From Cellvibrionales bacterium UBA5860 (lineage in GTDB: Bacteria > Pseudomonadota > Gammaproteobacteria > Pseudomonadales > Porticoccaceae), in NCBI GenBank assembly GCA_002431545.1, contig DJFY01000086.1, forward strand, positions 2,848-26,847: a DNA stretch of 24,000 nucleotides, written 5' to 3'. Position numbers and translations under genes: made by a program. Of this stretch, positions 1 to 24,000 are shown one piece after another. How positions within the stretch are numbered: the stretch's first letter is position 1; each line of letters starts with the position of its first letter. The notes under the pieces are model-generated. The model was not told the origin of the DNA and did no database searches. It saw only the letters and a program-made list of their open reading frames with translations.

Positions 1-902
1 ATCTCGTAATACCGCTCGATAAACTGCACGCAATGGCTAAATGACCGGGCCACAAGAAGCAGTGGCACAACCATGATCAGCGGTTCAATCGGGTCTCCTA
101 ACCAGCCGACAAAACCAAAACCCCAAATCGCGGCGACCAGACTACTGACCACGGGCACGACAACGCCGACAATATTGCGCATGTACAGCACCAGCGACAA
201 CAACAAAGCTGTGCCGGTGATTGCAAAAATCGTTAGCATTTGTTTTTCGTAGTAGTACACCCAACCGGTGAGCATGGGCTGGCCCGCGACATAAATCTCA
301 TGAACATCGTCACGCTCAGCCTCTACAATATTTTCCTGAATAAAATTAAAAACCACGCCGTAATCCAGCAAACGCTCGATAAAAGTGGCCTGAATCAATG
401 TGGCGGTTTCATCCTGGGAAATAAGGAAAGTCTGACTACTGGGTGACTTTTTGACCCGCTCGATAAACTCGCGCATCTCCTCCGGCGTCTTGGGAGCCGA
501 ATCGCCCATTAACGGCTGACTATCGATTCCAAAGGGCGTGGCCTGCGCGTAGCGAGCTTTTTCCGTGCTGATGGAAAGTATCTGGTCGTGATCGACACCT
601 GGCGTGAGGTCGATATTGCGCGTCATATCCCAGACTTTCTGCAAAGTGTCCGGCTGATAGATCGATTTACCGTCAGTACGCTTGACCATGACGGTAACGG
701 TAAGAGGGTTGCCAAAATTCGGGTGATCCAGATAGGTTTCTACAAATGGATGACTCTTTGGCAGCAAGTCAGTAAATATGGTTTTTAATTCAACCTTGTA
801 TACACCGGCGGCGAAAAAGGCAGTAATAACGGTCATGATGAGCATTGACGCCCACCGGTGGTGCATGACCAATCTGGCTAGCCGATAACGAACGGTTTCC
901 AA
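1..902 (-). CDS. RND-superfamily (MMPL/HpnN-like) membrane transporter. About 300 N-terminal codons are present and the 3' end runs off the window.
   Basis: This ORF is absent from the supplied track because it is open at the window edge. Manual translation of the minus strand gives one uninterrupted frame from about 902 to 1: LETVRYRLARLVMHHRWASMLIMTVITAFFAAGVYKVELKTIFTDLLPKSHPFVETYLDHPNFGNPLTVTVMVKRTDGKSIYQPDTLQKVWDMTRNIDLTPGVDHDQ...YVAGQPMLTGWVYYYEKQMLTIFAITGTALLLSLVLYMRNIVGVVVPVVSSLVAAIWGFGFVGWLGDPIEPLIMVVPLLLVARSFSHCVQFIERYYE. The layout is TM1, a large periplasmic loop, then a TM2-4 block, as in MMPL/RND exporters and as in the 852-aa ORF at 10401. The start is TTG at 902 or ATG at 866, and an in-frame TAG lies at 926-924. 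The short + strand ORFs at 240-446 and 588-788 are antisense shadows of this gene. Confidence 0.7.
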   Translation of the reverse strand, partial: METVRYRLARLVMHHRWASMLIMTVITAFFAAGVYKVELKTIFTDLLPKSHPFVETYLDHPNFGNPLTVTVMVKRTDGKSIYQPDTLQKVWDMTRNIDLTPGVDHDQILSISTEKARYAQATPFGIDSQPLMGDSAPKTPEEMREFIERVKKSPSSQTFLISQDETATLIQATFIERLLDYGVVFNFIQENIVEAERDDVHEIYVAGQPMLTGWVYYYEKQMLTIFAITGTALLLSLVLYMRNIVGVVVPVVSSLVAAIWGFGFVGWLGDPIEPLIMVVPLLLVARSFSHCVQFIERYYE

Positions 903-1396
903 CGCGCTTTCCCCCTGGCAAGACTACAAGAAGTTTGTTATTAGTTCTTGATTCGGTCATGTGGTGCGAATCCAGCTGACCTAACCGGATTTTCCGCCAT
1001 CCCGAAAAGCGCCTGACTCTATCATGGCGATTCTGTGACGTCCACAATATAAATAAATATGACTGTAAAAAAGCCTCTATTTTCAGTAACTTTGTAAGGG
1101 TCCTTACGTAATATACGTCAGCACGCAGACATAAATAGAGTAAGCTTTAGTTATTCATGTAGGATCGTGCACTGGGATCTGACACCCATTCAATCTTTCG
1201 TGATATCTTCAAATAGAATCTATCTTCACTACGGCAACCGCGACTTTGTCGAACGATTATTTAGAAGATGGGGGGAAATACAGGAATAAAAAAGCTATCG
1301 CTTTTAAGAAGCACGGAAATGGAAGCTCGTTGTTCTCTTTACAGCGGTGCAACGAGGCGCTACACAACAGCCACACCCGCCGACAGGCAAAGCCAC

Positions 1397-2068
1397 CTAA
1401 CGCGAGATGCGTGCTTTCCAAACAACGACCAAACCGGCGGCAATCATCAGGCAAAACAAACCAGCACCCCAAAGCCAGCGCGGCATGGTTTCGTCCGCCC
1501 GCTCGAAAGTAGCACTGACTCCGGGAACACTCCAGAGGTCACCACTCCCGCGACCAACCACAAGCTGGGCCTTCATACCTTTTTCCATATGCTGAGCGAT
1601 GTCGCAATGTACAAGATAAGTCCTGTCATCGCTCGGCACAATAAAGGTGCCGCTTTGACGATGCCCTCCGGCAGCTTCCATATGAAACATGCCCTGGTCA
1701 TACAAGTATTTCGGCAATCCGTGCACCATCCACTGGTGGCGCACACGGTCTTGATTTATAAAGGTCACCGTTATTCGACTGCACGGCTCAACCTGCCATT
1801 GATGATCGCTAAAACCAAAAGTCGTGCCTGGGAAAGGTTTCGCATACTCAGTACCAGCAGTCACCTCGAACTGGTACTCCCGGCGTATTTCTGAACAATC
1901 CTCTGGCAACTTATCGGCATTCTCATTCATCACCATCCCTGTTTCGTCCATTTTCATGGCGTGATGATCGTTGTGGTGGTGATGCTCCATCTCTGGCTGC
2001 GCTTGGGTAATACCGGAGTAGAGCAGCAGCACACCGACGACAAAGTAACCGACGAACGAGCTAATCAT
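1397..2068 (-). CDS. Membrane-anchored type-1 cupredoxin (plastocyanin/azurin-like, CopI-like) with an N-terminal His/Met-rich tract. It is the last gene of the CuMMO operon.
   Basis: 223 aa. It has a signal peptide (MISSFVGYFVVGVLLLYSGITQA|QPE). A metal-binding tract follows at residues 27-47 (MEHHHHNDHHAMKMDETGMVM). Type-1 copper ligand pattern: RHQWMVHG (H111/H116), then VHCDIAQHMEKGM, which is C155-x4-H160-x4-M165. C-terminal hydrophobic helix WLWGAGLFCLMIAAGLVVVW. The start overlaps the upstream MCO stop by 8 nt. Confidence 0.8.
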   Translation of the reverse strand: MISSFVGYFVVGVLLLYSGITQAQPEMEHHHHNDHHAMKMDETGMVMNENADKLPEDCSEIRREYQFEVTAGTEYAKPFPGTTFGFSDHQWQVEPCSRITVTFINQDRVRHQWMVHGLPKYLYDQGMFHMEAAGGHRQSGTFIVPSDDRTYLVHCDIAQHMEKGMKAQLVVGRGSGDLWSVPGVSATFERADETMPRWLWGAGLFCLMIAAGLVVVWKARISR

Positions 2069-3767
2069 TGCGCTTCTTCACGAAGGTCCAGACCCACAAA
2101 AGACCCAGCAACAAGCCGATCACGATAGTCAAAGCCAAAATCCTAAGCGTTGAAATCGCGTACGGCTCGACGCTTTCGAGCAGGGACGTCGAACCATCCG
2201 CTGAATCTCTGCGATAAAACTCAGGTGCCAGAAAATTATTCCAGTCCAGACCAAAAGTCATCGGCCAACCATCATCCTGCAGGTATTTGTCGTAAACAAT
2301 TGCGCTGACATTCCCGCCCGGCCCCAGGCCGTTGGTGGTGACGCCTCGCTCCCGATGATCGTGCATCAACCAGACGCCAGGGCCATAGCTATGCAGACCA
2401 TCGTCCTTTGTCGACAAGTCCAGATCCACGCGCTGCGCCGACGCTATCCAAACCACATCGCGGGTAATACGGGCCGGCTCGGGATGCTCGACACCATCGT
2501 AGTGAGTGATAGTCACTTTATGTCCGTGCGTGTGGAGCGCCACTCCTTCGCTCCCGGCGTTTAACACGCGCAGCTTCACCCGCTCATCTGGGGCAGTCAC
2601 GATCAGTGAATCCCTGGCGGTATAGGGAAAAGAGCGTCCATTAAGCATGTAATATTCGAAATCCGCCTGGCTGATGTCGTATTGCCGGTGCACCCGCTGC
2701 GTGATAACACGTGGATCGTTACTCGACTGCACCGCTTCTCCGAGTTCTTTATCGAAGTCCTGATAATGAAGATCGTATTCTCGGTCGTAGCTTTCCTTGC
2801 TGGCCACGGAAGGGTGACGTACCAGCCCATCACCGATGTTAAAAGTCTGCAGCCAGTTGTTGGGCCGGTTCTCCTCGACTACGAACAAACCGTTTAAACC
2901 CATCAGGATGTGCGCCTGCACCTCTACGTGGCAGTGATAGAACATCGAGCCCGCCTGTCGCGGCTGCATCTCATAAGTGCGCTGCTTACCCGGCATCAAA
3001 GGCTTTTCGCTGGTGACGGGAACACCGTCATTACCTTCACCGTTCTCGTCCAGAAAGGGATGGTCTACCCCGTGAAAATGGATCGTATGCGGCATGTAAT
3101 GGGTATTCTCCAGCGTCACCTTGATCTGGTCGCCCTGCTCTACACGAATGGCCGGCGAAGGCATCCTTAACCCAGGCTGCGCAATCAGCGACTCAAAATT
3201 TTCCGTCGACATGCCAACCGACTTGGGGGCAAACACCCAAAACCCAGGTTTGATTCCGGGCGCGACTGAATACTGGACCACGGGTTCGTTGATATCTGGC
3301 GAGGCGCCGTTAAGTTCGAATACTTCCAAACGAATATGGATTTCGTCCGGGTCGCCATCCTGATCCAGGTCGCGACCCTTGACGACAGCGTCAGGAGACA
3401 GGCGGGCATTCATCAAGGTCATATGGCCGACGTTGTTCGTGCCTTTGACAAACGCCGCGATGGCGTGGGGATTATCTGCAAGGCAACCGGGTTCGGCCAG
3501 AATATCGATGCCGGCTACAGTCTGCGCCTTGCGCCAGCCCTTGAGATCAGGAGGACAGATATCGCCGATTTCATCGTAATCGGAATCTTGCAGCGGCCGG
3601 GCAGGAATAGTAGCAGGCGCTTCCCGATAGTCAGTAGCACCAAACTGCTTGTCATACCAGACGCGCCAGTCGCGCGGATACCATTGCCATGGTACTAACG
3701 CTACGATTAATAACGTCAGAACGACTAAGACAAGGGCTCGAACAAGGACTCTCAAAACTTCAGGCAA
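2061..3767 (-). CDS. Two-domain multicopper oxidase (NirK/2dMCO superfamily) with an N-terminal TM helix, a roughly 170-aa extension and a C-terminal TM helix.
   Basis: 568 aa. Four HxH pairs are present. H227-T-I-H230-F-H232-G is L3-type (HxxHxH). Y-H278-C279-H280-VEVQA-H286-IL-M289-GLNG is L4-type with the T1 Cys/His/Met. L-H412-T-H414-G-H is L1-type (HxHG). WLM-H469-D-H471 is L2-type. N-terminal TM is LVRALVLVVLTLLIVALV and C-terminal TM is LRILALTIVIGLLLGLLWVW. The start is TTG, 15 nt after the preceding stop. Confidence 0.85.
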   Translation of the reverse strand: MPEVLRVLVRALVLVVLTLLIVALVPWQWYPRDWRVWYDKQFGATDYREAPATIPARPLQDSDYDEIGDICPPDLKGWRKAQTVAGIDILAEPGCLADNPHAIAAFVKGTNNVGHMTLMNARLSPDAVVKGRDLDQDGDPDEIHIRLEVFELNGASPDINEPVVQYSVAPGIKPGFWVFAPKSVGMSTENFESLIAQPGLRMPSPAIRVEQGDQIKVTLENTHYMPHTIHFHGVDHPFLDENGEGNDGVPVTSEKPLMPGKQRTYEMQPRQAGSMFYHCHVEVQAHILMGLNGLFVVEENRPNNWLQTFNIGDGLVRHPSVASKESYDREYDLHYQDFDKELGEAVQSSNDPRVITQRVHRQYDISQADFEYYMLNGRSFPYTARDSLIVTAPDERVKLRVLNAGSEGVALHTHGHKVTITHYDGVEHPEPARITRDVVWIASAQRVDLDLSTKDDGLHSYGPGVWLMHDHRERGVTTNGLGPGGNVSAIVYDKYLQDDGWPMTFGLDWNNFLAPEFYRRDSADGSTSLLESVEPYAISTLRILALTIVIGLLLGLLWVWTFVKKRND

Positions 3768-3782
3768 TAAACTTGATCATTG

Positions 3783-4460
3783 TCATTTCGGCCGAAAAAT
3801 ATGGCTACGCCCGGCCCCATATATAAATATTGCACACAGCAAAAAAAGCAGCGCGAAATACTTTACATACTTTCCGTATTGCGGCGAGCCAACGGCGAAC
3901 GGAAATACAGACGTGTATTTCAACCCTGTTTCCAGGTGATGCGCATTGACAATGCCGATGTAGCCTCCCTCCTGGACGAAGTTGTAACGAACATTCATCA
4001 CGCCTTTCTGGAATTGCCGAGGCTCCTGATAATAAATAGTTGCCTTTTCTATCGCTTCGGGACCGCCTAAATCCGCATAGGTCGCGGTTACGCCGATGCT
4101 GTTAACATCGCGCACGATACGAAAATCAAGCTCCATGTTACGAAGTTCGTCGCTGATAAAATCAATCACAAATATACTTTCCGCGACCAACGGGATATCT
4201 TCGCAAAATTCCTGGGTCGCTCGCTGTTTTGGCAGGTAGCCTGTGAAATGCGCCTTGTAACGATCGATTTTTATAATACAGACGTCGTCTTCTACCGACA
4301 CTCCACCGTGCCCGAATACGGCGGGAGCAAATAGCGTGACGCTAACGAATAACGCCAACGCCGTTAAATAATGGGCAGGCCAGGAAAAAAAGTTCACAAA
4401 ATAGTCTTGATGCTTATGAAAACTGCCAGTGAGCGCACGGACCCATCCCATATGACTCAA
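3783..4460 (-). CDS. Bitopic periplasmic protein in the PmoD/AmoD position: signal/TM, a roughly 145-aa periplasmic domain, then a C-terminal TM. Homology to PmoD is unverified.
   Basis: 225 aa. The TTG start at 4460 overlaps the xmoB TGA stop (TTGA). An alternative ATG lies at 4451. Hydrophobic segment YLTALALFVSVTLFAPAVFG is followed by HGGVSVEDDVC, so the predicted mature N-terminus is His51. There are two Cys (C61, C86). C-terminal helix YFALLFLLCAIFIYGAG. The architecture matches what is described for PmoD, but I cannot confirm sequence homology by eye. Confidence 0.75.
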   Translation of the reverse strand: MSHMGWVRALTGSFHKHQDYFVNFFSWPAHYLTALALFVSVTLFAPAVFGHGGVSVEDDVCIIKIDRYKAHFTGYLPKQRATQEFCEDIPLVAESIFVIDFISDELRNMELDFRIVRDVNSIGVTATYADLGGPEAIEKATIYYQEPRQFQKGVMNVRYNFVQEGGYIGIVNAHHLETGLKYTSVFPFAVGSPQYGKYVKYFALLFLLCAIFIYGAGRSHIFRPK

Positions 4461-5713
4461 AAGAAAGTCGGCAGAATAGGGCCGCCAATTTCCTGATAAT
4501 AGCGCTTGCCGTCCTCGTCAAAGTAGAACAACAAACCAGCAAAGCGGCTGTCCGGGTCATTAATCAGCCCGGTCATACGGTACTGTTCCCATAATGCATC
4601 GGAGGCAACCATTTTCACCGGACGCGATGCTCCCGGCGGAATAACACTGTCACCGGTAACCGTGAGGCCATCAAAAGCTACCATTTCTTCTTCCGGATAA
4701 GTCGTCGGACCACTGATAGCAGAGTTGAGAAAACGAATGTTCGCCGTAAGGAACTCACCGATGCTATAGGCTTGATCGGAACGATTTGTCAACACCGCAT
4801 TGATCATCAAACTGCGCCCGGCCAATTCGTATCGCGCGCTCTCTACTTCGATATCAAGTTCACCCGTCGGCGGCGTTAGCCCGACCACATCCACCTTCCC
4901 TGTTTGCAACGGTATAGTAATTGGATATTTATTCTCCCCCCACAAATAGCCGCCCAAAATAACCGCCAGCGTTAGCGTGAAGAAGACACTGCTTACGACG
5001 AAATCTCGCTTGGTAAGAATTTCATCGGCTTTATCCTGCCCCATCTCTCTGACACGTATAAACCGCGGGATAAAAAGTTCACGCCGAGCCAGCCAATAAA
5101 CGATATAGGCAATCCCCAGGACGATCCAGACAACGTGCCAAACAAACACATCGCCCAAACCATAGGTCTCGAGATTCACAGTCTCACCGGTAAGCGTTGT
5201 GGCTTCATTCACAAAAGGTACCGGGCCGCCGGAATGATCTTCAACCTCCACCCACGTGCCCTTGCCGACCAAAGAACCCGCATCTTTTACGTTTAAAAGC
5301 GAGTGAACATGGTAGCGACCTGGAATTCGAGCCCGCATGATAATGCGGTATTCGTACACTTTGCCGAGCTCGAAAGCTGTCGAACGCACCATGGGCACTT
5401 CGTTTACAGATGCGTCGAGCTTGATAAAAGTAGGCCCGGGCACCCCGATATTGAGGTAAACAGTATCTTCAGGACTCGGCAACTGATTGGGCCATAGCTC
5501 AGAGGTATAAAACTTCCCGGTCACTGTGACGATATCGCCTACCTTGACCTTGAGTGGCGCAACATTTAAATCGAACCAGTGCACGGTCCGCATACGCATA
5601 CTCGCCAATTGGGCGCGCTCACCGTGAGCAACCACATCGCCTGCGAATAGAGACAGCAACAACACCAAGACGAGATTTACCGTTGCAGAACGCGCTGAAA
5701 AAACAACTTTCAT
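4457..5713 (-). CDS. pmoB: Copper membrane monooxygenase subunit B (PmoB/AmoB family).
   Basis: 418 aa. A signal peptide ends ...GDVVA|HGERAQLASMRMRTVHWFD (compare PmoB HGEKSQAAFMRMRTIHWYD). This gives an N-terminal His30 plus GRYH135VH137SLLNV, the His/HxH CuB ligand set. Two internal TM helices (VFVWHVVWIVLGIAYIVYWL, VVSSVFFTLTLAVILGGYLW) sit between two soluble domains, as in PmoB. Confidence 0.93.
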   Translation of the reverse strand: MKVVFSARSATVNLVLVLLLSLFAGDVVAHGERAQLASMRMRTVHWFDLNVAPLKVKVGDIVTVTGKFYTSELWPNQLPSPEDTVYLNIGVPGPTFIKLDASVNEVPMVRSTAFELGKVYEYRIIMRARIPGRYHVHSLLNVKDAGSLVGKGTWVEVEDHSGGPVPFVNEATTLTGETVNLETYGLGDVFVWHVVWIVLGIAYIVYWLARRELFIPRFIRVREMGQDKADEILTKRDFVVSSVFFTLTLAVILGGYLWGENKYPITIPLQTGKVDVVGLTPPTGELDIEVESARYELAGRSLMINAVLTNRSDQAYSIGEFLTANIRFLNSAISGPTTYPEEEMVAFDGLTVTGDSVIPPGASRPVKMVASDALWEQYRMTGLINDPDSRFAGLLFYFDEDGKRYYQEIGGPILPTFF

Positions 5714-5737
5714 ACTCTCTCCCCCTTCAAATCCCGC

Positions 5738-6538
5738 TTACGCGATGCGCTTGGCATACTTGTCCAGTCCATTAATCCACTTACCCAGCAGCAAAAACAA
5801 GGCATAAACGACTATGCCGACGAGGCCCGCAAAGACAGCAGTCAAGGGCGTCACCGAACCACCAAAAGTTCGCAACGTCGACTCTTCGATAATTCTTAGG
5901 TATTCGGGAGTCGTTGTCCGAATATATTGGAAGCCCATCAGGTCTGCCATTGACAAAAGCATGCCATTGAATTCCACCGGCACTTTGGAGGCCGCGAAGA
6001 TAGGCCAGTTAAGCGGCCACACCAGCGCTCCGAAAAGCCCACCGCCGATAATGCAGGAAATGATCAGGCTACGCGTCATAATCAAACTGCAATCGAGCAA
6101 AATACCCAAGCCAATGTATGTAGACGCGGGAACAAACGACATCGGGAAGTAGGTGAACTCGTAAAAATTCAGGTAGCGGCTCAGCCACGACGTCAGACAC
6201 AACAATGTCGTTACGGCCGTAGCGACTACGGGCAACCGCAAGCGGTACCAAAGCCCATAAGCAAGCGGCCCGATAAACATCAGCAGGGTCATTGGGGCTA
6301 CGACTGGCCACCAACGGCGATCCCGCCAGTCAATCCAGTAATCCCAGTCCCCGGCCGTTAGAGTAAACTGTATCTGAACACCCAGGGCCAAGAACGAAAA
6401 AAGCACCAAGATAAATATGCCATCAAACCGCCGGTAGAGCTTCATGGCTTTGGGATTGTCAAGGGACTTGACATCCAGCCTTCGCTGTCGAACCTCGTTT
6501 TCTGACATCAATTCTGTGGAAACAGACTGTTCACTCAT
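5738..6538 (-). CDS. pmoA: Copper membrane monooxygenase subunit A (PmoA/AmoA family).
   Basis: 266 aa. Hallmark motifs are LTAGDWDYWIDWRDRRWWP and MGFQYIRTTTPEYLRIIEESTLRTFGG (compare [25 protein letters not shown]). It is a polytopic membrane protein. SD GAGGTG precedes the ATG. Confidence 0.93.
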   Translation of the reverse strand: MSEQSVSTELMSENEVRQRRLDVKSLDNPKAMKLYRRFDGIFILVLFSFLALGVQIQFTLTAGDWDYWIDWRDRRWWPVVAPMTLLMFIGPLAYGLWYRLRLPVVATAVTTLLCLTSWLSRYLNFYEFTYFPMSFVPASTYIGLGILLDCSLIMTRSLIISCIIGGGLFGALVWPLNWPIFAASKVPVEFNGMLLSMADLMGFQYIRTTTPEYLRIIEESTLRTFGGSVTPLTAVFAGLVGIVVYALFLLLGKWINGLDKYAKRIA

Positions 6539-6590
6539 AGCAACACCTCATATACCCGCTGCGGGATATACCGGAAATTAGCGCTTTTTG

Positions 6591-6627
6591 GAAAAATTAT
6601 CCCCGCAACCAAAAGCTTGCGGGGATA
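6591..6627 (-). terminator. Intrinsic-terminator-like hairpin in the xmoC-xmoA intergenic spacer. It could be an attenuator or an RNA-processing/stability element.
   Basis: In the mRNA sense the sequence is UAUCCCCGCAA-GCUUUUGG-UUGCGGGGAUA, an 11-bp perfect stem with an 8-nt loop (6598-6627). It is followed immediately by AUUUUUC (6597-6591). It lies 50 nt after the xmoC stop and about 55 nt before the xmoA start. Confidence 0.55.
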
Positions 6628-6676
6628 AAGGTAGGGATTCACCGCTGCCCTCAAGGCAAAGGAATCAGGTCATAGC

Positions 6677-7486
6677 TCAGATAACCTGACGCTCCTCCGT
6701 AGATGCCGTACTTTCTGTCGCGGTGGTCTGAGCAATCAGGCGGCCCATGTTAGTAAAGATTTGCACACCCAGGGGCACCAGGAAAAACAGCGACCAGCCC
6801 AGGAAAACAAAACCCCAGTGCACGGGCGCGGCGAACAACTCTTCAGCATAGAAGAAAGTATGCCCCCACTCGTTGAAGCCGTAGTTGGGCATGATCATAA
6901 AGATACCGAGCACTACGCACAGGAAGGGGATCGATATTTTATTCATAAAAGCCGGAATTCTGGTATGAGCCCAAATGAAGGTTGGAATGAGAAACGCGGT
7001 AAGCGCGGGTAAAGCAAAGTAGAAGATAAAGATATGTGTTGGCGTGAAGTCCGTATCGCGGATCGTGACCTGATGCCAGGCAGCATCCGACTCGACCGCA
7101 TTGGTGGCAATTGCAGCCACCCAAATCCCAATTACCGTAAGAAAGCTCAGCAATTTCCAGTAACGGGAAAGCTCCAACTCAGGGGAGATTGCGCTAGCAT
7201 CCCGCTCCCGCGTCAGCCATACGTATACCGAGGTACAGACGGTAAACAATCCGAGAAAGAGCACTTCCCCGTAGAGCACGGGCATCCAGTACTTCTGAAA
7301 CTCTGGAGAGTAGAAGTCAGTGCCAACGGAGAAAGCCATAGTATTGAGGTATATGCGGTATGCGAGACCGATACCCAACAGTATTGAAGCTAAAATATAG
7401 ACAATTCGATTGCGCCTGAAATGGCCAGCCAGCTTGCTTTCCGCCCCGGAATCCAGCGCGACTGTTGCAGTATTAGTTTGTGCCAT
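6677..7486 (-). CDS. pmoC: Copper membrane monooxygenase subunit C (PmoC/AmoC family).
   Basis: 269 aa. Motifs are FYSPEFQKYW, ES-D134-AAW-H138-QVTIRDTDFTPT-H151 (D-x3-H-x12-H) and F-N205-EWG-H209-TFFYAEELFAAPV-H223-WGF (N-x3-H-x13-H). The spacings match the CuC (D156/H160/H173) and CuD (N227/H231/H245) ligand sets of Methylococcus capsulatus Bath PmoC as I recall them. Both sets show the same 22-residue offset. SD AGGGG precedes the ATG. Confidence 0.93.
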   Translation of the reverse strand: MAQTNTATVALDSGAESKLAGHFRRNRIVYILASILLGIGLAYRIYLNTMAFSVGTDFYSPEFQKYWMPVLYGEVLFLGLFTVCTSVYVWLTRERDASAISPELELSRYWKLLSFLTVIGIWVAAIATNAVESDAAWHQVTIRDTDFTPTHIFIFYFALPALTAFLIPTFIWAHTRIPAFMNKISIPFLCVVLGIFMIMPNYGFNEWGHTFFYAEELFAAPVHWGFVFLGWSLFFLVPLGVQIFTNMGRLIAQTTATESTASTEERQVI

Positions 7487-7579
7487 GATTGGATACCCCT
7501 GTTTTAACTTCGACGCTTATTTAATATTCGTCTGTTCGAATATGCCTTTTTCAGGACAGGCCGGTTTTGTTCTTCTCTA

Positions 7580-7617
7580 CTAGCCTTACAAAGCAATTCT
7601 AGCCTTGTAGAGCAATC
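7580..7617. repeat. Tandem direct repeat, 2 x 19 nt, 94-131 nt upstream of xmoC.
   Basis: CTAGCCTTACAAAGCAATT (7580-7598) is followed immediately by CTAGCCTTGTAGAGCAATC (7599-7617). Identity is 15/19. Confidence 0.8.
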
Positions 7618-7802
7618 GTCAAACCGGAGAGCCTGTTTGATGGCAACGAATATACGTGGCGCCCGTCACACTGCGTAGTGCCAATCTTGACAACAGTGTT
7701 GCAGAAAGTGACACAAAGCTCGAGGCAAGAACATGCCAATCATTCGTACTAGATATATCGCTACGACGTCTTGCCACCCTTCATAACCATGAAGCATATT
7801 GC

Positions 7803-7846
7803 CGAGTGCGTTTCTTATATTTATCGAGCGTGTTTCTTATATTAAT
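7803..7846. repeat. Tandem direct repeat, 2 x 22 nt, in the xmoC upstream region.
   Basis: CGAGTGCGTTTCTTATATTTAT (7803-7824) and CGAGCGTGTTTCTTATATTAAT (7825-7846) are 19/22 identical. They share a perfect 12-mer, GTTTCTTATATT, at 7810-7821 and 7832-7843. Confidence 0.8.
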
Positions 7847-7866
7847 TTATAGCCTTTCTGTGACAA
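7839..7866 (-). promoter_or_regulatory. Candidate sigma70-type promoter for the CuMMO operon, implying a 5' leader of roughly 340 nt.
   Basis: On the minus strand, TTGTCA (7866-7861) is followed by 16 nt and then TAATAT (7844-7839). Alternatively it is followed by 19 nt and then TATAAG. The -10-like elements lie inside the 22-nt repeat units. This is a by-eye match only, with no TSS data. Confidence 0.3.
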
Positions 7867-7915
7867 TTCGCCTTGTATCATACGGCTTGCCCTTCATGCC
7901 GCTCCCTGCTTGCCG

Positions 7916-8791
7916 CTATGCCACTCCCAGCAAGGAAACGATTGCTGCCACATCACCGCGGGATTCATCCGATATGGACTCAATATCTGAACCACCCAGA
8001 TCCAACCGACGAAACGTGGGAGTCGTTTCGTAGTTGATTCCCTGTATACCATCAAGTATGTCCTGGCTTACCAGGGAAGTCAGGTAATTCGCAACCAGAA
8101 CAACGTCGGCGATATCGGCAAACTCCGGATCCTCGCGTTGCAGGGCCTCAACCTCATCGGCAAATAACCGAACCGACGTCGCCAGCCCCCAGTTTCGCAA
8201 AATAGACAACCGAGCTCGCCCGTGCCAGTCCAGCATAATCTGTCGCAAACCGTCAATGTCGTCGCACAGATCGGGGAATTGGTCTTCAGCGCGCACCATG
8301 AGGTAAATTTTACCTACGTCATACATCAAACCTGCCAGCATGGCATCGTCCGCATTCAGATGGCGATAACGTTTGGCAACGCAATAAGAATAAGCGGCAA
8401 CATAGATCGTATGCCGCCACAATGTCTGAAAATGAGACCTCAACTTGCCGGCGGCCCTTTCCAACAAGACCTGGCGCAGAGCAATCGACAACACGATGGA
8501 TCCGGCCATCTTGAAGCCCATGCGCGCGATCGCGGTAGGTAAATTACTGATTTGCGCACCGGGCACGGCGCCCATCGCGACGGAGTTGGCAACTTTTAAC
8601 AGGGTTGCAGCAACGATGGGGTCGGCACCCGCCACCGCAGCCACTTGATCAGCTGAAGCTTCGGGATCATCCAATACACTCTTGATTCGAAACGGGATGT
8701 CGGGAAAAGATGGCAATTCGATTTCGCCATCTGCCAGCTCCTGGCCCAACAACTGGAGGAACTCAAATCCACGTTCGCTGAGATCAGCCAC
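7916..8791 (-). CDS. HDOD domain-containing signalling protein.
   Basis: 291 aa. The N-terminal half is typical of HDOD domains: LPSFPDIPFRIKSVLDDPEASADQVAAVAGADPIVAATLLKVANSVAMG...IARMGFKM...LWRHTIYVAAYS...AGLMYDVGK. Confidence 0.85.
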   Translation of the reverse strand: MADLSERGFEFLQLLGQELADGEIELPSFPDIPFRIKSVLDDPEASADQVAAVAGADPIVAATLLKVANSVAMGAVPGAQISNLPTAIARMGFKMAGSIVLSIALRQVLLERAAGKLRSHFQTLWRHTIYVAAYSYCVAKRYRHLNADDAMLAGLMYDVGKIYLMVRAEDQFPDLCDDIDGLRQIMLDWHGRARLSILRNWGLATSVRLFADEVEALQREDPEFADIADVVLVANYLTSLVSQDILDGIQGINYETTPTFRRLDLGGSDIESISDESRGDVAAIVSLLGVA

Positions 8792-8960
8792 ATGAATCTC
8801 GCTTTATTCTTTCCTTTTCGGCTATCTTATACCTATTAAGAAACCACCCCAAGGCCTTTTCTCTACCTGGCGCAACAATACGCCTGAAGACGTGTGCCGC
8901 GATTGGCCACCTCGAACCCTTAAATCTAGCTATTACGCAACAGCGCGATGATGGGGTTTA

Positions 8961-9914
8961 TTAAGCCTGATGCAACCAGTTCTGCAAGTTTACCGCCGCA
9001 ATCTCGACCAGCCGCTGCCGCGCCTCGCGCGCACCCCAGGCACAATGGGGCGTAATAATCAGGTTGGGGACCGCGCCGTCCAGAAGGATGTGGTCGGCCG
9101 GCGGCGGCTCCTGATCGAGCACATCCAGACCGGCTCCGCCGATCACGCCTTCCTTGAGCGCCCGCGCCAACGCTTGCGAATCGACAATCTCGCCACGGGC
9201 ACAATTAATCAGCAAAGCGTCGTCGCGCATCAGCGCGAACTCAGGCGCAGAAATCAATCGGCGCGTATTGTCCTGCAACGGGCAGTGAATGGTCACAATG
9301 TCAGACATGCGCAGAAAGTCGGCAAATAATTCGCGCTCGACATCCTTGGCCTGCGGCTGCCACCCCGGCAACTGGGCGACTACGACACGCATGCCAAAAG
9401 CGCGGGCAACTGCGGCCACAGCCTGCCCCAGGGTACCGTAGCCAATTATTCCCATTGTCAGGCCATCCAGCTCTCTCACCGGAAAACCAAGCAGGCAGAA
9501 ATCCTCGCTTGCCGACCACCCGCCGTCGTTCACTGCTGCGGCGTAAGCCGGGAGTTTCGTAGTCAACGCCAAAATCAACGCGAAGACGTGCTGCACAATT
9601 GCGGGAGTGCCATAATTGACGATACGGGTGACGACAATTTCCCGGCGCTTTGCCTCAGCCATGTCGATCACGTTGGTACCGGTAGCGAGCACACCGATAT
9701 AACGCAAACCTGTCGCCGCAGCCATTTGCTCAGCCATCACAGGGGCCTTGTTGGTCAATACCAGATCAGCATCGCGTATACGCGCTACGATATCTTCCGG
9801 CTTGGAACGCCCGTGAACACACCACTCTACTTGCGGATTATCCAGCAGGGGAGACAGGTCCAGGTCTTCAGGGTACAGAGTATCCAGGTCGAGAATTACG
9901 CCGTTAAGCATCAA
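8961..9914 (-). CDS. D-isomer-specific 2-hydroxyacid dehydrogenase (glycerate/hydroxypyruvate reductase-like), NAD-binding.
   Basis: 317 aa. Rossmann motif GIIGYGTLGQAVA. Catalytic-triad context INCARG...GLDVLDQEP...ITPHCAWG. Confidence 0.88.
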   Translation of the reverse strand: MMLNGVILDLDTLYPEDLDLSPLLDNPQVEWCVHGRSKPEDIVARIRDADLVLTNKAPVMAEQMAAATGLRYIGVLATGTNVIDMAEAKRREIVVTRIVNYGTPAIVQHVFALILALTTKLPAYAAAVNDGGWSASEDFCLLGFPVRELDGLTMGIIGYGTLGQAVAAVARAFGMRVVVAQLPGWQPQAKDVERELFADFLRMSDIVTIHCPLQDNTRRLISAPEFALMRDDALLINCARGEIVDSQALARALKEGVIGGAGLDVLDQEPPPADHILLDGAVPNLIITPHCAWGAREARQRLVEIAAVNLQNWLHQA

Positions 9915-10027
9915 ACACGAGCTCCAAAGCGATCACTGATATCAAACGGCAATGCATCGCCATCGGCTTGTAGTATGATCAACTCAAGCACCAGTAAAAA
10001 GAAAAATCTACCACTTGGAGATCCGCG

Positions 10028-10312
10028 TTGACACCCGCCAAGCCCCGCGTCGAGGTTCACTACTGCCCTGCTTGCCACTGGTTGCCACGCTCCACCTGGA
10101 TGGCTCAGGAAATACTTTACACATTTGGCGAAGAACTCGGCGAGGTGGCACTCGTGCCGGCCAGCGAAAGTGGCAGATTTACCATTCTATTGGACGGAGA
10201 GATCATCTGGGATCGTCGACAGGAGGGTGGCTTCCCCGATGTCAAGACGCTCAAACGCAAGTTGCGCGATGCTATCGCACCCGATCGCGCGCTCGGGCAT
10301 CTGGACAAGTAA
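10028..10312 (+). CDS. Rdx-family (SelW/SelT/SelH-like) small thioredoxin-fold protein, Cys-containing form.
   Basis: 94 aa with a TTG start. Family signature VHYCPACHWLPRSTWMAQEIL...GRFTILLDGEIIWDRRQEGGFPDVKTLKRKLRDAI, with a CxxC redox motif. Confidence 0.8.
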   Translation: MTPAKPRVEVHYCPACHWLPRSTWMAQEILYTFGEELGEVALVPASESGRFTILLDGEIIWDRRQEGGFPDVKTLKRKLRDAIAPDRALGHLDK

Positions 10313-10400
10313 ACCGACGGCTCCGCTGGCATAATGCCGCCGCGTTTTGTAAAGCTAAATCCACAACAGACACTGACCACAAAAAACAATAAGGAATGAC

Positions 10401-12959
10401 ATGACTGATCGCCTGATCGCGGTTTATGACCGCATCATTCTCGAACAGCCAAAACTCGCCCTTGCCCTGGTTTTACTGCTTGCAGCCGTACTGGCTATAG
10501 GCTTACCTAATTTCAAGCTCGATGCCTCGGCGGACTCGCTGACCCTCGAACACGACACTGACCTCGACTATTTCCGGGAAATCAACCAACGCTACGGCAG
10601 TGGCGATTTTCTGGTGGTGATGTATACGCCGCACAACGGCGATCTATTCTCCGATCAGGCTTTGCAAACACTGGATGCACTCGGCAAAGACCTGAAAAAA
10701 ATCGATGGCGTCACGAGTGTCAATTCGCTGGTCACCGTACCGTTGTTATACAGCCCGAAAGTGTCCGTCGAATCCCTGCAGGAAGAACAACGCACCCTGC
10801 TGACACCCGGTGTCGACCGCGAGGCCGCCAAGCGCGAATTCCATACCAGCCCAGTCTACCGAAACCTGATTCTGAGCCCGGACGGTAATACTACCGCCGT
10901 TTTAGCCACCATCGCCCAGGACCAGCGCTACATCGACCTGGTACGCCGGCGCGACGCTCTGCGTCTCAAACGCGACCAGGAAGGATTGAACGACAGCGAA
11001 AAGGCCGAACTTGAGCAAGTCAGCCAGACATTCCTCGACTATCGCACCGAGCGCGCCGCTATCGATCGGGCGCGGGTAGAGGCGGTTCGCCAGCTGATGG
11101 GCCGTTACCGCGATCGCGCGGAGGTCTTTCTTGGCGGCCCCAGCATGATTACCGCCGACATGATCGACTTCGTGCGCGGCGATCTGCAGATTTTCGGCGC
11201 CGGCATTACGCTGTTCATTATCCTGACGCTAAGCCTGATATTTCGCCAGCTCCTCTGGGTTGTCTTACCCCTGGCAACCTGCGGCCTGACCATCACCATC
11301 ATGCTGGGCTGGTTGAGCTGGATCGACTGGCGGCTGACCGTGATCTCTTCCAATTTTGTAGCGCTTCTCCTGGTACTGACGATGGCGGTAACCATCCATT
11401 TAATCGTTCGCTACAGAGAACTACACACTGCGCACCCCGAAGCGGACCAGCATCAACTGGTTCGCGATACCGTATACCTAATGGCCAGACCCTGCATTTA
11501 TACGGTACTGACAACGATGGTGGCCTTCGCCTCGCTGGTAGTCAGCGATATTCGTCCCGTCATCGATTTCGGCTGGATGATGACTATTGGCCTACTGGTC
11601 ACCCTGTGCCTTGTATTTGTCGTCATTCCCGCCGGTATGTTAATCGCCGGGAAAAGCGCCGGGAGTCAGACCAACCACACGACCCACTTGCCAGAATTTT
11701 TTTCCGATGTAACAGAGCGACGCGGCGGCCTGGTACTCATTCTCTCGGCGGTACTGGGCGGGCTGGCGATGTTTGGCATCGCCCGCCTGGAAGTCGACAA
11801 CCGGTTTATCGATTATTTCAAAACTGACACCGAGATCTATCAGGGGCTTTCCGTCATCGATCAGAAGCTCGGCGGTACGACACCCTTGGACATTGTCATT
11901 CAGGCTCCGGCCTTCGCACAGGATTTAGAAACAAGTGACAGCGAAGAGCCGGATCCATTTGCCGACGACCCACTTGAAGACGACCCTTTTGCAGAAGATC
12001 CATTTGCCGATAGTTTTGGCGACGATCCCTTTGCCGAACCCGACCCCAATAAAAAGATCAATAGCTACTGGTTTACCCGCGCCGGCCTTGAAGATCTGGA
12101 AAAAATTCAGCGTTTCCTGGACGATTTACCCGAAATCGGCCGGATAGACTCATTGGTCACCGCCTTTCATGTCGCTAACGATCTCACCGGGCGCCGGCTT
12201 AACGACTTCGAGCTGGCCTTCATGCGGCAAAGCCTATCGCCCGATCTAAACAACTTCCTGATCGCCCCATATCTCGACGACGAAAGTAACGAAACCCGCC
12301 TGACCATGCGGACAATCGAGACCGGTACCTCGCTCAATCGACAGGAACTACTAAACGAAATCGAAGGTTTTCTAATCGACGAAATGGGCATCGAGCCCGA
12401 GCGCTATCGGCTCAACGGTTTGCTCGTGCTTTACAACAATATGCTGCAAAGCCTATTTAGTTCGCAGATCATGACCCTGGGCGCGGTCTTCCTGGGCATC
12501 ATGCTGATGTTTTTGGTGTTGTTCCGCTCTCTGAGCCTGGCGCTCATCGCCATTGTGCCGAACTTGCTGGCTGCCTCCGTCGTGCTCGGCGTGATGGGTC
12601 TGGCCGGTATTCCCCTGGATATGATGACGATAACGATCGCATCGATCACGGTCGGCATCGGCGTCGACGATACCCTGCACTATATTTACCGTTTTCGCGA
12701 GGAATTCCCCCGGGATCGCAACTACATCGCCGCCATGCACCGCAGCCACGCGTCTATCGGCATTGCGATGTACTACACCTCTGTCGTTATCATCGTCGGT
12801 TTTGCCGTACTGATACTGTCGAACTTCATGCCCTCAGTCTATTTTGGTCTGCTGACCGGGCTAGCCATGCTGGTGGCCCTGGTGGCGGCACAGACCCTGC
12901 TGCCCAAATTACTGCTCATTTTCAAACCCCTCGGCACTGAAAACCAGCCCTCGATTTGA
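10401..12959 (+). CDS. RND-superfamily (MMPL/HpnN-like) exporter, 12-TM with two periplasmic loops. The second loop carries an acidic DPF-repeat insert.
   Basis: 852 aa. SD AAGGA precedes the ATG. There are two TM bundles (about residues 270-420 and 690-840) and large loops. The start of the second loop carries an acidic tract, SDSEEPDPFADDPLEDDPFAEDPFADSFGDDPFAEPDP. Confidence 0.9.
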   Translation: MTDRLIAVYDRIILEQPKLALALVLLLAAVLAIGLPNFKLDASADSLTLEHDTDLDYFREINQRYGSGDFLVVMYTPHNGDLFSDQALQTLDALGKDLKKIDGVTSVNSLVTVPLLYSPKVSVESLQEEQRTLLTPGVDREAAKREFHTSPVYRNLILSPDGNTTAVLATIAQDQRYIDLVRRRDALRLKRDQEGLNDSEKAELEQVSQTFLDYRTERAAIDRARVEAVRQLMGRYRDRAEVFLGGPSMITADMIDFVRGDLQIFGAGITLFIILTLSLIFRQLLWVVLPLATCGLTITIMLGWLSWIDWRLTVISSNFVALLLVLTMAVTIHLIVRYRELHTAHPEADQHQLVRDTVYLMARPCIYTVLTTMVAFASLVVSDIRPVIDFGWMMTIGLLVTLCLVFVVIPAGMLIAGKSAGSQTNHTTHLPEFFSDVTERRGGLVLILSAVLGGLAMFGIARLEVDNRFIDYFKTDTEIYQGLSVIDQKLGGTTPLDIVIQAPAFAQDLETSDSEEPDPFADDPLEDDPFAEDPFADSFGDDPFAEPDPNKKINSYWFTRAGLEDLEKIQRFLDDLPEIGRIDSLVTAFHVANDLTGRRLNDFELAFMRQSLSPDLNNFLIAPYLDDESNETRLTMRTIETGTSLNRQELLNEIEGFLIDEMGIEPERYRLNGLLVLYNNMLQSLFSSQIMTLGAVFLGIMLMFLVLFRSLSLALIAIVPNLLAASVVLGVMGLAGIPLDMMTITIASITVGIGVDDTLHYIYRFREEFPRDRNYIAAMHRSHASIGIAMYYTSVVIIVGFAVLILSNFMPSVYFGLLTGLAMLVALVAAQTLLPKLLLIFKPLGTENQPSI

Positions 12960-13155
12960 CAGCCCGCCAATCGCCATCTAGTTTTTATTTCAAACGGCAT
13001 TTGTTGCAGGCAGCAAGCGACGCAAAACATGGTGCTCTCTGAGACGGACGCCAGCAGCGCACCGCCGGGCGGAGCACCATTGACCGCAAAACCGAGGACC
13101 ATTCGCAGTAAAACAACCACTGACGCAGCACTGGACTGACAGGAGCACATACATC

Positions 13156-13362
13156 ATGGCGACCACAGACCTGGATGCCCGGATAAAAGAGCTCGGGCCC
13201 GAACAATCCCTGACCATTCCAAGGGACGAATTCCGCAGTATCTGTGACGAAGAAGACAAGGTCGTTTATCTGACGATCGCGCGGCGTATGGCAAAGGCCA
13301 ATAAACGCTGGGTCACAATCGAGGAAGATAACCTGATCTTTGGTCCGCCTCCTGAAAAATAA
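13156..13362 (+). CDS. Small hypothetical protein (68 aa).
   Basis: AGGAG lies 10 nt upstream of the ATG. The protein is hydrophilic and not low-complexity. A 10-bp hairpin lies about 48 nt downstream of the stop. I recognise no family. Confidence 0.5.
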   Translation: MATTDLDARIKELGPEQSLTIPRDEFRSICDEEDKVVYLTIARRMAKANKRWVTIEEDNLIFGPPPEK

Positions 13363-13409
13363 GCGATATTCTGGAATATAAAGCTACCCTACTCGGCTTC
13401 CAGCCAGCC

Positions 13410-13437
13410 TCTTTGGGCCTGTGTTAGGGCCCAAAGA
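13410..13437 (+). terminator. Stem-loop downstream of the 68-aa ORF. It may be a terminator but lacks a U-tract.
   Basis: TCTTTGGGCC-tgtgttag-GGCCCAAAGA is a 10-bp perfect stem. It is followed by ttccggg, which is not T-rich. Confidence 0.35.
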
Positions 13438-13616
13438 TTCCGGGCTCCACACCCTTTGCTGTAGAGTGATTGCCAGTGCCGGGACCTGGCACAAGCCCGG
13501 TCTCGACCCGCAACCCGGCCCGCCCGCAGCCAACCGTCTAGGTATCGTTACGGCTTTACCTTATAATCCAGCGCCTTTGTCATCCGTCATCACCTCACGC
13601 GCTGGTGTGTCTAGCT

Positions 13617-16076
13617 ATGCAGGAAGATTATCAGCCCCAAAATATCGAGCGCTCTGTTCAGCAGTACTGGCAGCAAGCGCAGTCATTCAAGGCCCGAGAG
13701 GATCACGCCAGGGAAAAATACTACTGTCTGGCAATGTTCCCCTACCCCAGTGGGCAACTGCACATGGGGCACGTGCGCAATTACACCATCGCCGATGTCG
13801 TCGCCCGCTACCAGCGCATGCTTGGCAAGAATGTGTTGCAGCCGATGGGCTGGGACGCGTTCGGATTGCCCGCGGAAAACGCCGCCATCAAGAATAAAAC
13901 CGCGCCAGCCAAATGGACTCGCGAAAATATCCGCTACATGAAAACCCAGTTGCAATCCCTCGGCTTCGCCTACGACTGGGACCGTGAACTCGCCACCTGC
14001 GATGCAGATTACTACCGCTGGGAGCAATGGTTCTTCACACGGCTCTACGAAAAAAACCTGGTCTACCGCAAGACCAGCGCCGTCAACTGGTGCCCGAACG
14101 ACCGAACGGTGCTAGCCAACGAGCAGGTGATCGACGGCTGTTGCTGGCGCTGCGACACGCCCGTCGAACGCAAGGAGATTCCCCAGTGGTTTATTCGCAT
14201 CACCGAGTACGCCGATGAATTACTCGCGGGACTGGACGCGCTGGACGACTGGCCCGAGCAAGTGCGCACCATGCAACGCAACTGGATCGGTAAAAGCCGG
14301 GGCATCACCATGCGCATCGCGCTGGAATATCCAGTCGCCGGAGCAGCGAACTTCGAGGTCTATACGACCCGCCCCGACACCGTCATGGGTATCACCTATT
14401 TCTGTCTCGCCGCCGAACACCCGATCTCCATCGAACTTGCCAAAAGCGATAAAGAACTGGGCGCCTTTCTCGAACGCTGCAAACGGCAATCCGTTGCCGA
14501 AGCCGATATGGCCACGATGGAAAAAGACGGTCGGGATACCGGACTGTTTGCCCGGCACCCGATCAGTGGCGAAAAACTACCCGTATGGGTGGCCAACTAT
14601 GTGCTGATGGACTACGGCTCGGGTGCTGTGATGGCGGTCCCGGCTCACGACCAGCGGGACTGGGAATTCGCGCAGAAATTCCGGCTGCCCATCAAACAGG
14701 TCATCGAACCGCTTGACAATACAGATTGCGACATCAGCTCGGCAGCCTTTATCGAAAAAGGCCGTTTGATTGCATCGGGTGATTTTGACGGTCTCGATTT
14801 CGACGGCGCTTTCACCGCTATAGCGCAAACACTGGCCGAAGACGATCGCGGCCGTGTCACCACCAATTACCGTCTGAAAGACTGGGGCGTGTCGCGCCAA
14901 CGCTACTGGGGCGCACCCATCCCCATGATCTACGACGACAAGGGTATGGAGATTCCGGTACCAGCGGACAAGCTGCCGGTGCTATTGCCGGAAGACGTGA
15001 CCATCGATGGCGTGCACTCGCCCCTCAAGACGGACGATAACTGGAACAAAGTCACTCACGACGGCAGCGTCCTGGCTCGGGAGACGGACACCTTCGATAC
15101 TTTCATGGAATCTTCCTGGTATTACGCCCGCTTCACCTGCCCCGATGCCGACACAGCGATGCTGGACCGGCAGCGCGCCGACTACTGGTTACCGGTCGAC
15201 CAATATATCGGCGGCATTGAACACGCCATCCTGCATTTACTGTATGCGCGCTTTTTTCACAAATTGATGCGCGACGAAGGCCTGGTTTCGTCCGACGAAC
15301 CTTTCACTAAACTGGTATGCCAGGGCATGGTGCTAAAGGACGGCAGCAAGATGTCCAAGTCCAAAGGCAACACCGTCGATCCGCAGAGCCTGATCGACCG
15401 TTACGGGGCCGACACCGTGCGCCTGTTTACCATGTTTGCCGCTCCGCCGGAGCAGTCCCTGGAGTGGTCAGACGAAGGCGTAGCCGGCGCCTCGCGTTTT
15501 CTGCGCAGATTGTGGAAGACGCTATATGAGCACTGCCGGGCGCCTACCCCCGGGACTCTCGACACCGACAAGCTAAGCGCCGCCGAGCGAGATGTCCGAC
15601 GCAAGACCCACGCCACCATCGCCAAGGTCAGCGACGATTTCGGGCGACGGCAAACCTTCAACACGGCCATAGCCGCCGTGATGGAATTACTTAACGAACT
15701 CAATAAACTCGATGCGGACTCGCCCCAGGCGGGTGCCATCGCTCAGGAAGCACTGGAAACAGCAGTGCTGCTGTTAGCGCCAATTACGCCACATCTCTGT
15801 CACGTCGCCTGGCATGCACTGGGGCACGAAGACCCTGTCATTGATGCGACCTGGCCACAGGTCGACGAGTCTGCGCTGGTGCAGGACCACATCAAGATGG
15901 CGGTTCAGGTCAACGGTAAAGTACGGGCGCAAATCGAAGTGGCGAACGGCACTCCGCAGGAAGAAATCGAACAAACCGCCATTGCCGACACCAACGTCCA
16001 ACGCTTTACCGACGGGAAAAGCATCCGTAAAGTTATCGTTGTCCCGGGCCGCCTGGTCAATATCGTAGCGGGCTGA
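13617..16076 (+). CDS. leuS: Leucine--tRNA ligase.
   Basis: The sequence matches LeuS throughout: [19 protein letters not shown]...[16 protein letters not shown] (HIGH motif) ...KMSKSKGN (KMSKS motif). The ATG at 13617 matches the canonical MQEQY-type N-terminus. The track ORF starts 4 codons earlier, at GTG 13605. Confidence 0.97.
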
Positions 16077-16117
16077 GGCAGGCTACAAGAGCTCTTTAAT
16101 CACACCGGAACCCCTTC

Positions 16118-17672: not shown

Positions 17673-17722
17673 CCCGAGTTTTTACTCCGAAAAATATCGA
17701 CCATAAAAGGACACCCATAACC

Positions 17723-18652: not shown

Positions 18653-18742
18653 TCGGGGAAGCACCCGCGCGATCGAAGAACCGATGGGCTGACACGGCAC
18701 CCGGTTAAACGCAGCGGGCCTGCTATTGTTAATCGAGCGTGA

Positions 18743-19519: not shown

Positions 19520-19523
19520 GCTT

Positions 19524-21755: not shown

Positions 21756-21778
21756 CGCGAAAACAAAAAGCGCGAATT

Positions 21779-23976: not shown

Positions 23977-24000
23977 AGATCACCCGCCGTCTGCCAGTTC

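Follow-up and report, generated by a model that had tools for sequence, protein, structure and literature searches.

A Porticoccaceae-type copper membrane monooxygenase operon with a PmoD homologue, a multicopper oxidase and a cupredoxin: a probable hydrocarbon monooxygenase

Copper membrane monooxygenases (CuMMOs) perform the first step in the oxidation of methane, ammonia and short alkanes, and because they control this first oxidation step each new lineage raises the question of its substrate range. In the present study a stretch of 24,000 nucleotides (nt) from contig DJFY01000086.1 of Cellvibrionales bacterium UBA5860, hereafter called the window, was analyzed for a pmoCAB gene cluster that encodes a divergent member of this superfamily. 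A preliminary description, made from the sequence without database searches, had placed CuMMO genes at 4457-7486 and had named their copper ligands and conserved blocks; coordinates and residue positions were confirmed exactly. The three genes lie on one strand in the order C-A-B, with spacers of 138 nt (pmoC-pmoA) and 24 nt (pmoA-pmoB), and the Pfam scores of all three products were far over the gathering scores:

6677..7486, minus strand: pmoC, CuMMO C subunit, 269 amino acids (aa); Pfam AmoC, 6.3e-62
5738..6538, minus strand: pmoA, CuMMO A subunit, 266 aa; Pfam AMO, 2.5e-73
4457..5713, minus strand: pmoB, CuMMO B subunit, 418 aa, with signal peptide; Pfam Monooxygenase_B, 2.4e-123

Alignment to solved structures together with direct position counting placed the CuB ligands of PmoB at H30, H135 and H137, with H30 as the first residue past the predicted signal-peptide cut between VVA and HGE, and those of PmoC at D134/H138/H151 (CuC) and N205/H209/H223 (CuD). 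All of these residues align with the ligand columns of solved particulate methane monooxygenases (pMMOs), and the columns are invariant in about 70-77 relatives from public genomes (71 for PmoC, 77 for PmoB). PmoA displays the blocks GDWDYW at 63-68, TPEY at 210 and TLRTFG at 221. The best solved structure for PmoC was that of Methylocystis (3rfr_C, 2e-53), and PmoB matched 3rgb_A at 2.5e-106 and the ammonia monooxygenase (AMO) chain 9leg_B at 1.1e-94. The CuD helix of PmoC (residues 209-223) reads HTFFYAEELFAAPVH here versus HTFWFMEELFVAPLH in Methylocystis PmoC, with substitutions of W to F212, F to Y213 and M to A214, which are common to the whole Porticoccaceae-type clade and its sister clade, both treated below. 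The window encodes a three-subunit member of the CuMMO superfamily with the full CuB/CuC/CuD ligand set, and as far as can be judged from sequence pmoCAB probably represents a complete, functional copper membrane monooxygenase.

Tight packing joins pmoCAB to the genes of a PmoD homologue, a multicopper oxidase and a cupredoxin in a six-gene operon, all open reading frames (ORFs) of which are intact. Only 5 nt separate pmoB from pmoD and 27 nt pmoD from the oxidase gene, which overlaps the cupredoxin gene by 8 nt; a gap of 551 nt then leads to a gene for an RND/MMPL transporter:

3783..4451, minus strand: PmoD homologue, 222 aa; a profile of 22 homologues matches PmoD 6cpd, 8.6e-21
2061..3755, minus strand: two-domain multicopper oxidase, 564 aa; Pfam Cu-oxidase_3 and Cu-oxidase_2
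1397..2068, minus strand: predicted membrane-anchored type-1 cupredoxin, 223 aa; AlphaFold2 model and Foldseek
1..845, minus strand: 5' part of an RND/MMPL transporter gene (787 aa in full); Pfam and the near-identical contigs L081-L084

The start codon of the PmoD homologue was set as in the gene predicted on near-identical contigs. The protein starts with a signal peptide and ends in a membrane helix, both hydrophobic ends being readable in the sequence. Its predicted mature N-terminus, HGGVS, is invariant, and its invariant residues C61, H71 and C86 form the motif C61-x9-H71...C86. With PmoD of Methylocystis sp. Rockwell (6cpd; PMC6189053) it shares the signal peptide, a cupredoxin-like periplasmic domain, two invariant cysteines, the C-terminal helix and the position directly after pmoB, but it differs in the invariant predicted N-terminal His of HGGVS and in Lys69, which occupies the position of Met49 and places it in the Cx9HxnC class. 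The CuA-forming motif Cx7MxHxnC is absent from the window homologue, and PmoDs of the Cx9HxnC class were found to bind copper, though not in a CuA site (Fisher et al., 2018, PMC6189053). Scanning a single genome for each GTDB species gave 80 CuMMO loci; a PmoD homologue follows pmoB in 71 of them, the oxidase gene occurs in 33 and the cupredoxin gene in 27, with both clades represented.

For the oxidase, the best solved structures were 3g5w (1.2e-31), which we take to be the two-domain oxidase of Nitrosomonas europaea, and 2zwn (6e-31). The type-1 (T1) site and four HxH motifs are common to all three proteins, and in 31 homologues of the window oxidase these motifs and HCH...H..M are invariant; the window protein differs from both structures in an additional conserved N-terminal region of about 200 residues and in hydrophobic stretches at both termini. 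The product of the last gene of the operon has an N-terminal stretch rich in His and Met, carries the motif C155-x4-H160-x4-M165 and ends in a helix; H116, C155, H160 and M165 are among its invariant residues. Its AlphaFold2 model (mean pLDDT 85) was matched by Foldseek with probability 1.00 to the T1 cupredoxin domains of small laccases and to auracyanin A, so that the ORF at 2068..1397 is best modelled as a type-1 cupredoxin with a predicted His/Cys/His/Met copper ligand set. The triad of PmoD homologue, oxidase and cupredoxin might supply copper or electrons to the monooxygenase; if it is functionally coupled to it, it would be a chain dedicated to loading a CuMMO with copper or delivering electrons to it. 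The value added by the present analysis lies in this six-gene operon, with oxidase and cupredoxin as possible missing copper or electron partners.

For phylogenetic placement neighbour-joining trees (Kimura protein distance, 200 bootstraps) were calculated for each subunit, with reference PmoA, PmoB and PmoC sequences drawn from alignments of solved structures and from the full-length representatives of a 50%-identity library. Among the 80 loci of the GTDB scan, 37 (L001-L037) belong to Porticoccaceae-type metagenome-assembled genomes (MAGs) with a PmoA identity of 58-89% to the window. They include Candidatus (Ca.) Reddybacter sp. MCH_2_108 (L015), North Pond NORP45 (L018), a Guaymas MAG (L008), several sand MAGs and the 'T64' MAGs of a Deepwater Horizon plume simulation (L012, L013, L023); Douglas Channel is also among the source sites of relatives. 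The remaining loci (L038-L080), from Nevskiales, Ca. Macondimonas, Polaromonas, Rhodoferax, Hydrogenophaga and others, reached 44-50% PmoA identity over the full length and up to 60% in two matches of partial coverage. A collection of 5.8 billion proteins gave the same picture, the closest PmoA being MAG proteins named Porticoccaceae (70-89% identity), followed at about 45-54% by Solimonas, Nevskia, Sinimarinibacterium, Hydrogenophaga and similar taxa.

The trees paired the window with L001, a Porticoccaceae sand MAG and the nearest species representative by PmoA (89-91% identity), at 100% bootstrap for PmoA, PmoB and PmoC each, and the Porticoccaceae-type clade as a whole was recovered at 100% in all three trees. 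Within it a sub-clade with 92% support unites the window PmoA with those of Reddybacter, the T64 MAGs and NORP45. A grouping of this clade with its sister clade, leaving pMMO and AMO outside, received 100% in the PmoA tree and 100% in the PmoB tree, the latter with three pMMO/AMO references; the PmoC tree, with one reference, is uninformative on this grouping. Identities over the trimmed alignments follow the same order. PmoA shares 58-91% with the clade, 42-48% with the sister clade, 41-42% with solved pMMO and 38% with solved AMO; the corresponding values are 58-79%, 42-48%, 42% and 39% for PmoB, and 56-89%, 39-47% and, for solved pMMO, 42% for PmoC. In the 50%-identity library the cluster of the window (representative P0016, 76% identity) stands apart from the other full-length representatives, at 41% or less.

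The divergence from methanotroph and nitrifier sequences that the preliminary description had noted is borne out by these values (41-42% to solved pMMO, 38-39% to solved AMO), and in the neighbour-joining trees none of the three subunits clusters inside a canonical pMMO or AMO clade. The pMMO equivalog cut-offs were missed at 244.4 versus 318.15 (TIGR03080) and 201.6 versus 280.6 (TIGR03078), and PmoB missed TIGR03079 narrowly (392.8, cut-off 394.9); the AMO cut-offs were likewise missed by subunits A and C (AmoA_BACT, 252.6 versus 290; AmoC_BACT, 225.3 versus 319). With the pMMOs of Methylococcus capsulatus Bath (3rgb/1yew) and Methylotuvimicrobium alcaliphilum 20Z (6cxh) the window enzyme shares the three-subunit architecture and the CuB, CuC and CuD sets with their spacings, whereas His72 of the bis-His site in Bath PmoB is replaced by Tyr69, and His38, His40 and Met42 of Bath PmoA by Gln55, Gln57 and Thr59. 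Bacterial AMO (9cl6, 9leg, 9pxf) has the fold family and the ligands in common with it. A further difference from the pMMOs of Bath and 20Z is that no C1 genes lie near the window operon: in agreement with the preliminary description, Pfam scans of 20 window ORFs (all of at least 170 aa) detected no methanol dehydrogenase, hydroxylamine dehydrogenase or other C1- or N-oxidation gene, nor did about 14 kb of extra flanks, for a total context of about 38 kb.

The CuMMOs of the sister clade (Polaromonas, Rhodoferax, Hydrogenophaga, Solimonas, Sinimarinibacterium) agree with the window in CAB-D gene order, in the ligands and in F212/Y213/A214, and differ in their PmoA identity of 42-48%. Rochman et al. 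reportedly described the betaproteobacterial CuMMO set in 2020 in ISME J, with a link to alkanes. The function of the betaproteobacterial and Nevskiales enzymes of this clade is still listed as unknown (PMC8630023).

The Porticoccaceae-type clade itself has already been described, and the window is one more member of it, so that the finding as such is known. Among 176 Porticoccaceae genomes pmoCAB was reported only from the genera B045, which is Ca. Reddybacter, HB2-32-21 and FW300_53, and together with environmental relatives these genes grouped in one monophyletic CuMMO clade, described as novel (Arrington et al., bioRxiv 10.1101/2022.11.07.515388). According to the same study, blooms on methylcyclohexane and methylcyclopentane were dominated by B045, a MAG of which encodes the full downstream ring-oxidation pathway, and the genomes of the clade were described as those of hydrocarbon-degrading heterotrophs; pmoD, the oxidase and the cupredoxin are unmentioned there (bioRxiv 10.1101/2022.11.07.515388). 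A peer-reviewed version (Environ Microbiol 25:2958, 2023) is cited in PMC13390413.

An identical PmoA was found on 16 public contigs, which include 'beach.sand.metagenome' records under PRJNA260285 as well as the NCBI MAGs GCA_003497255.1 and GCA_052031305.1; the window and the PmoA-identical contigs share 99.84-99.96% identity over up to 16.5 kb. The study behind PRJNA260285 is presumably that of oil-spill sand at Pensacola Beach, in which case the window population may belong to the genus HB2-32-21, which includes a genome from coastal sediment at Pensacola, Florida (bioRxiv 10.1101/2022.11.07.515388). As regards the host, the closest relatives are named Porticoccaceae and the flanks of the operon are typical of a gammaproteobacterial core chromosome.

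Downstream of the operon the clade possesses neighbours of its own. On the near-identical contigs L081-L084 the RND gene is followed, outside the window, by genes for a BNR/Ycf48-like and then a DUF1329 (LolA-like) protein (L081, 15697-20583). RND, BNR and DUF1329 genes were found in 23, 13 and 14 clade loci, respectively, the RND protein being 75-87% identical and in the same position across all 23, and in the sister clade the set occurs in only one locus and is absent from 42 of 43. These neighbours may handle hydrophobic compounds. Ca. Reddybacter (L015) is comparable to the window in the clade of its PmoA, PmoB and PmoC (76-77%, 68% and 70% identity), in the order pmoCAB-pmoD-oxidase-cupredoxin-RND and in the petroleum-exposed habitats, but in L015 DUF1329 precedes BNR, and the window represents another species-level lineage. 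The RND/BNR/DUF1329 neighbours, together with a conserved hairpin that divides pmoC from pmoAB (see below), are further context added to the published clade.

We assign the enzyme to the Porticoccaceae 'particulate hydrocarbon monooxygenase' clade and its host to the oil-associated marine gammaproteobacteria, and we consider it likely, with a probability of roughly 70%, that it is a hydrocarbon monooxygenase the preferred substrate of which is neither methane nor ammonia. Petroleum hydrocarbons are favoured over methane and ammonia because of the habitat pattern, the association with cycloalkane blooms and the clade-specific RND/BNR/DUF1329 neighbours, none of which is a measurement. With O2 and two electrons, the PmoC copper site of the enzyme would hydroxylate a hydrophobic petroleum hydrocarbon, and the product alcohol would enter a heterotrophic metabolism of the beta-oxidation type; by analogy with known pMMO and with actinobacterial hydrocarbon monooxygenases we infer such PmoC-copper hydroxylation in an alcohol-oxidising heterotroph. 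The substrate may be a methylated cycloalkane (methylcyclohexane, methylcyclopentane) or a short alkane, with methane and ammonia as side substrates at most. If the clade indeed hydroxylates C6-C7 cycloalkanes, the range of CuMMOs would reach well past C1-C4, and an enzyme would be named for the fate of an abundant and toxic fraction of oil.

Several points weigh against this assignment. The sole substrate association in the clade, that with blooms on C6-C7 methylated cycloalkanes, is correlative, and either the CuMMO or a cytochrome P450 was proposed as the first oxygenase (bioRxiv 10.1101/2022.11.07.515388). The trees are neighbour-joining trees with few labelled references, among them no Haliea, Cycloclasticus, actinobacterial or pxm sequences identified by name. 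The host family was derived here from the names of relatives and not from the contig, and the negative result for C1 and hydroxylamine pathways covers the context of about 38 kb rather than the whole genome. Finally, the equivalog thresholds are not unanimous, as PmoB passes AmoB_BACT (468.8 versus 336). The preliminary description had proposed a short-chain hydrocarbon monooxygenase in a heterotrophic host; the relatives are indeed oil-associated, hydrocarbon-degrading heterotrophs, whereas its C2-C4, Haliea-type part found no support, the link within the clade being to C6-C7 cycloalkanes. Its interpretation is thus partly supported and broadly right, goes in nothing beyond published work, and missed the extension of the operon through pmoD, oxidase and cupredoxin to the start of the RND gene.

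Among the alternatives, the one that survives best, though it is rather improbable, is that the physiological substrate is a different small compound, volatile or polar, for example ethylene, acetone or a further non-alkane, as in the ethylene enzyme of Haliea or the acetone enzyme PMO3 of Verrucomicrobia. CuMMOs are promiscuous and new natural substrates are still emerging, sequence does not fix the substrate, and the environment of the CuD site differs through F212, Y213 and A214. These three residues, however, are common to the whole sister clade and so are not specific to the lineage, and members of the clade come repeatedly from petroleum-exposed samples and cycloalkane blooms.

That the enzyme is a true pMMO and its host an unrecognised methanotroph is very unlikely. 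The copper ligands are all intact, the top-scoring solved structures are pMMOs and PmoB lies barely below the TIGR03079 cut-off, but subunits A and C are far below theirs, the identity to pMMO is 41-42% with a separate clade at 100% bootstrap, the context of about 38 kb holds no methanol dehydrogenase or C1-assimilation gene, and the published genomes were described as hydrocarbon-degrading heterotrophs.

The genes that follow pmoB also occur elsewhere. A search with the cupredoxin returned 3,619 protein clusters at an E value of 1e-5 or better, and six matches of 53-62% identity on marine contigs of about 20 kb or longer (L090-L095) were examined. In all six a homologous oxidase (54-65% identity) precedes the cupredoxin and a cytochrome c oxidase operon of the order COX2-COX1-COX3-COX3-COX4_pro adjoins; no PmoA, PmoB or PmoC was present within about 8 kb in any of these six contigs. 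Five of them also carry a PmoD-like gene with the motif HGGV...C-x9-H...C, the sixth consisting of oxidase and cupredoxin only, and two PmoD-like genes compared by hhalign gave E values of 2e-52 and 5e-59; one carrier of these oxidase-linked PmoD-like genes is a Cycloclasticus MAG. It can safely be stated that the triad is a module which travels with membrane cuproenzyme operons and is not confined to CuMMO operons. A more far-reaching reading, which we put forward tentatively and regard as somewhat doubtful, is that PmoD-like protein, oxidase and cupredoxin form a portable three-gene copper module of membrane cuproenzyme operons that was recruited here to pmoCAB. All PmoDs were previously found to occur in CuMMO-encoding genomes (Fisher et al., 2018, PMC6189053); if the module reading is true, PmoD-type proteins may, contrary to that survey, not be specific to CuMMOs.

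These contigs bear on a further alternative, according to which the enzyme is an AMO, or takes part in heterotrophic nitrification with oxidase and cupredoxin handling nitrogen intermediates. PmoB does pass the AmoB_BACT cut-off, and the nearest solved relative of the oxidase is 3g5w, from the presumed nitrifier source given above. Still, this view is very unlikely: identities to AMO amount to 38-39%, the sequences lie outside the AMO branch, neither hao nor cytochrome c554/cM552 genes are found nearby, and the oxidase-cupredoxin genes also stand beside cytochrome c oxidase operons without a nearby CuMMO, hence are not specific to nitrification.

Turning to the non-coding parts of the operon, a consensus scan identified a hairpin in the spacer between pmoC and pmoA, and pmoC is preceded by a leader without ORF:

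6597..6628, minus strand: terminator-like hairpin in the pmoC-pmoA spacer, a 12-bp G+C-rich stem followed by a U-run
7487..7915, minus strand: leader upstream of pmoC, 429 nt, no ORF, presumably the promoter region

The hairpin is present after pmoC in nearly all loci of the clade, and in an RNAalifold consensus of 22 sequences 13 pairs were formed in it, nine of them with compensatory double changes. It resembles a partial terminator, or an element that stabilises a 3' end, between pmoC and pmoAB, and it may tune the ratio of pmoC to pmoAB transcript. A promoter scan of the leader gave a single weak sigma-70-like match (7866..7839), no better than chance, and Rfam and tRNA scans of the window yielded no matches.

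A different gene arrangement was observed in seven loci of the Ca. Macondimonas type (L066, L067, L069, L072, L074, L076, L079), which display pmoA-pmoB-pmoD, usually with oxidase and cupredoxin. No PmoC match was detected upstream of pmoA in these seven; their pmoC is perhaps located elsewhere or too divergent.

With respect to base composition, G+C is 0.48-0.52 over the region of the pmo operon (window 1-8000) versus 0.55-0.58 in 8000-24000, and the genes upstream of pmoC vary among clade members: here an HDOD protein is encoded, in L015 an acyl-CoA dehydrogenase with MoxR/VWA, and in L001 an AraC regulator. A clue to the substrate was sought in catabolic genes beside pmoC of the relatives, and none was gained, as these upstream flanks are not conserved. 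Horizontal acquisition of the operon in one piece would fit both the G+C contrast and the variable upstream neighbours. Both could also be taken to indicate a decaying or non-functional relic of such a transfer, a view that we regard as very unlikely. None of the six ORFs is disrupted, and across about 70-77 relatives the ligands do not vary; the gene order of the operon is conserved, as is the structured spacer with its compensatory changes, and several independent metagenomes yielded near-identical copies (99.8-99.96%).

To the right of the operon follow genes for the HDOD protein, a 2-hydroxyacid dehydrogenase, an Rdx-family protein and a second RND/MMPL transporter as well as leuS-lptE-holA; further right lie a lipid A acyltransferase, a DUF815 ATPase, a ligase of the fatty-acid-CoA type, an aminotransferase and a nucleotidyltransferase, and past the window lptD-surA-pdxA-rsmA-apaG-apaH. 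The flanks are core gammaproteobacterial chromosome, and a reading of the locus as a prophage or plasmid island was dropped on account of these core chromosomal genes. Two of the flanking genes are adjacent on the opposite strand to the operon:

10028-10312, plus strand: small ORF of the Rdx family (selenoprotein W-like), directly upstream of the second RND transporter
10401-12959, plus strand: second RND transporter, HAE3/MMPL-type, at about 27% identity a distant paralogue of the RND/MMPL protein encoded downstream of pmo in related loci

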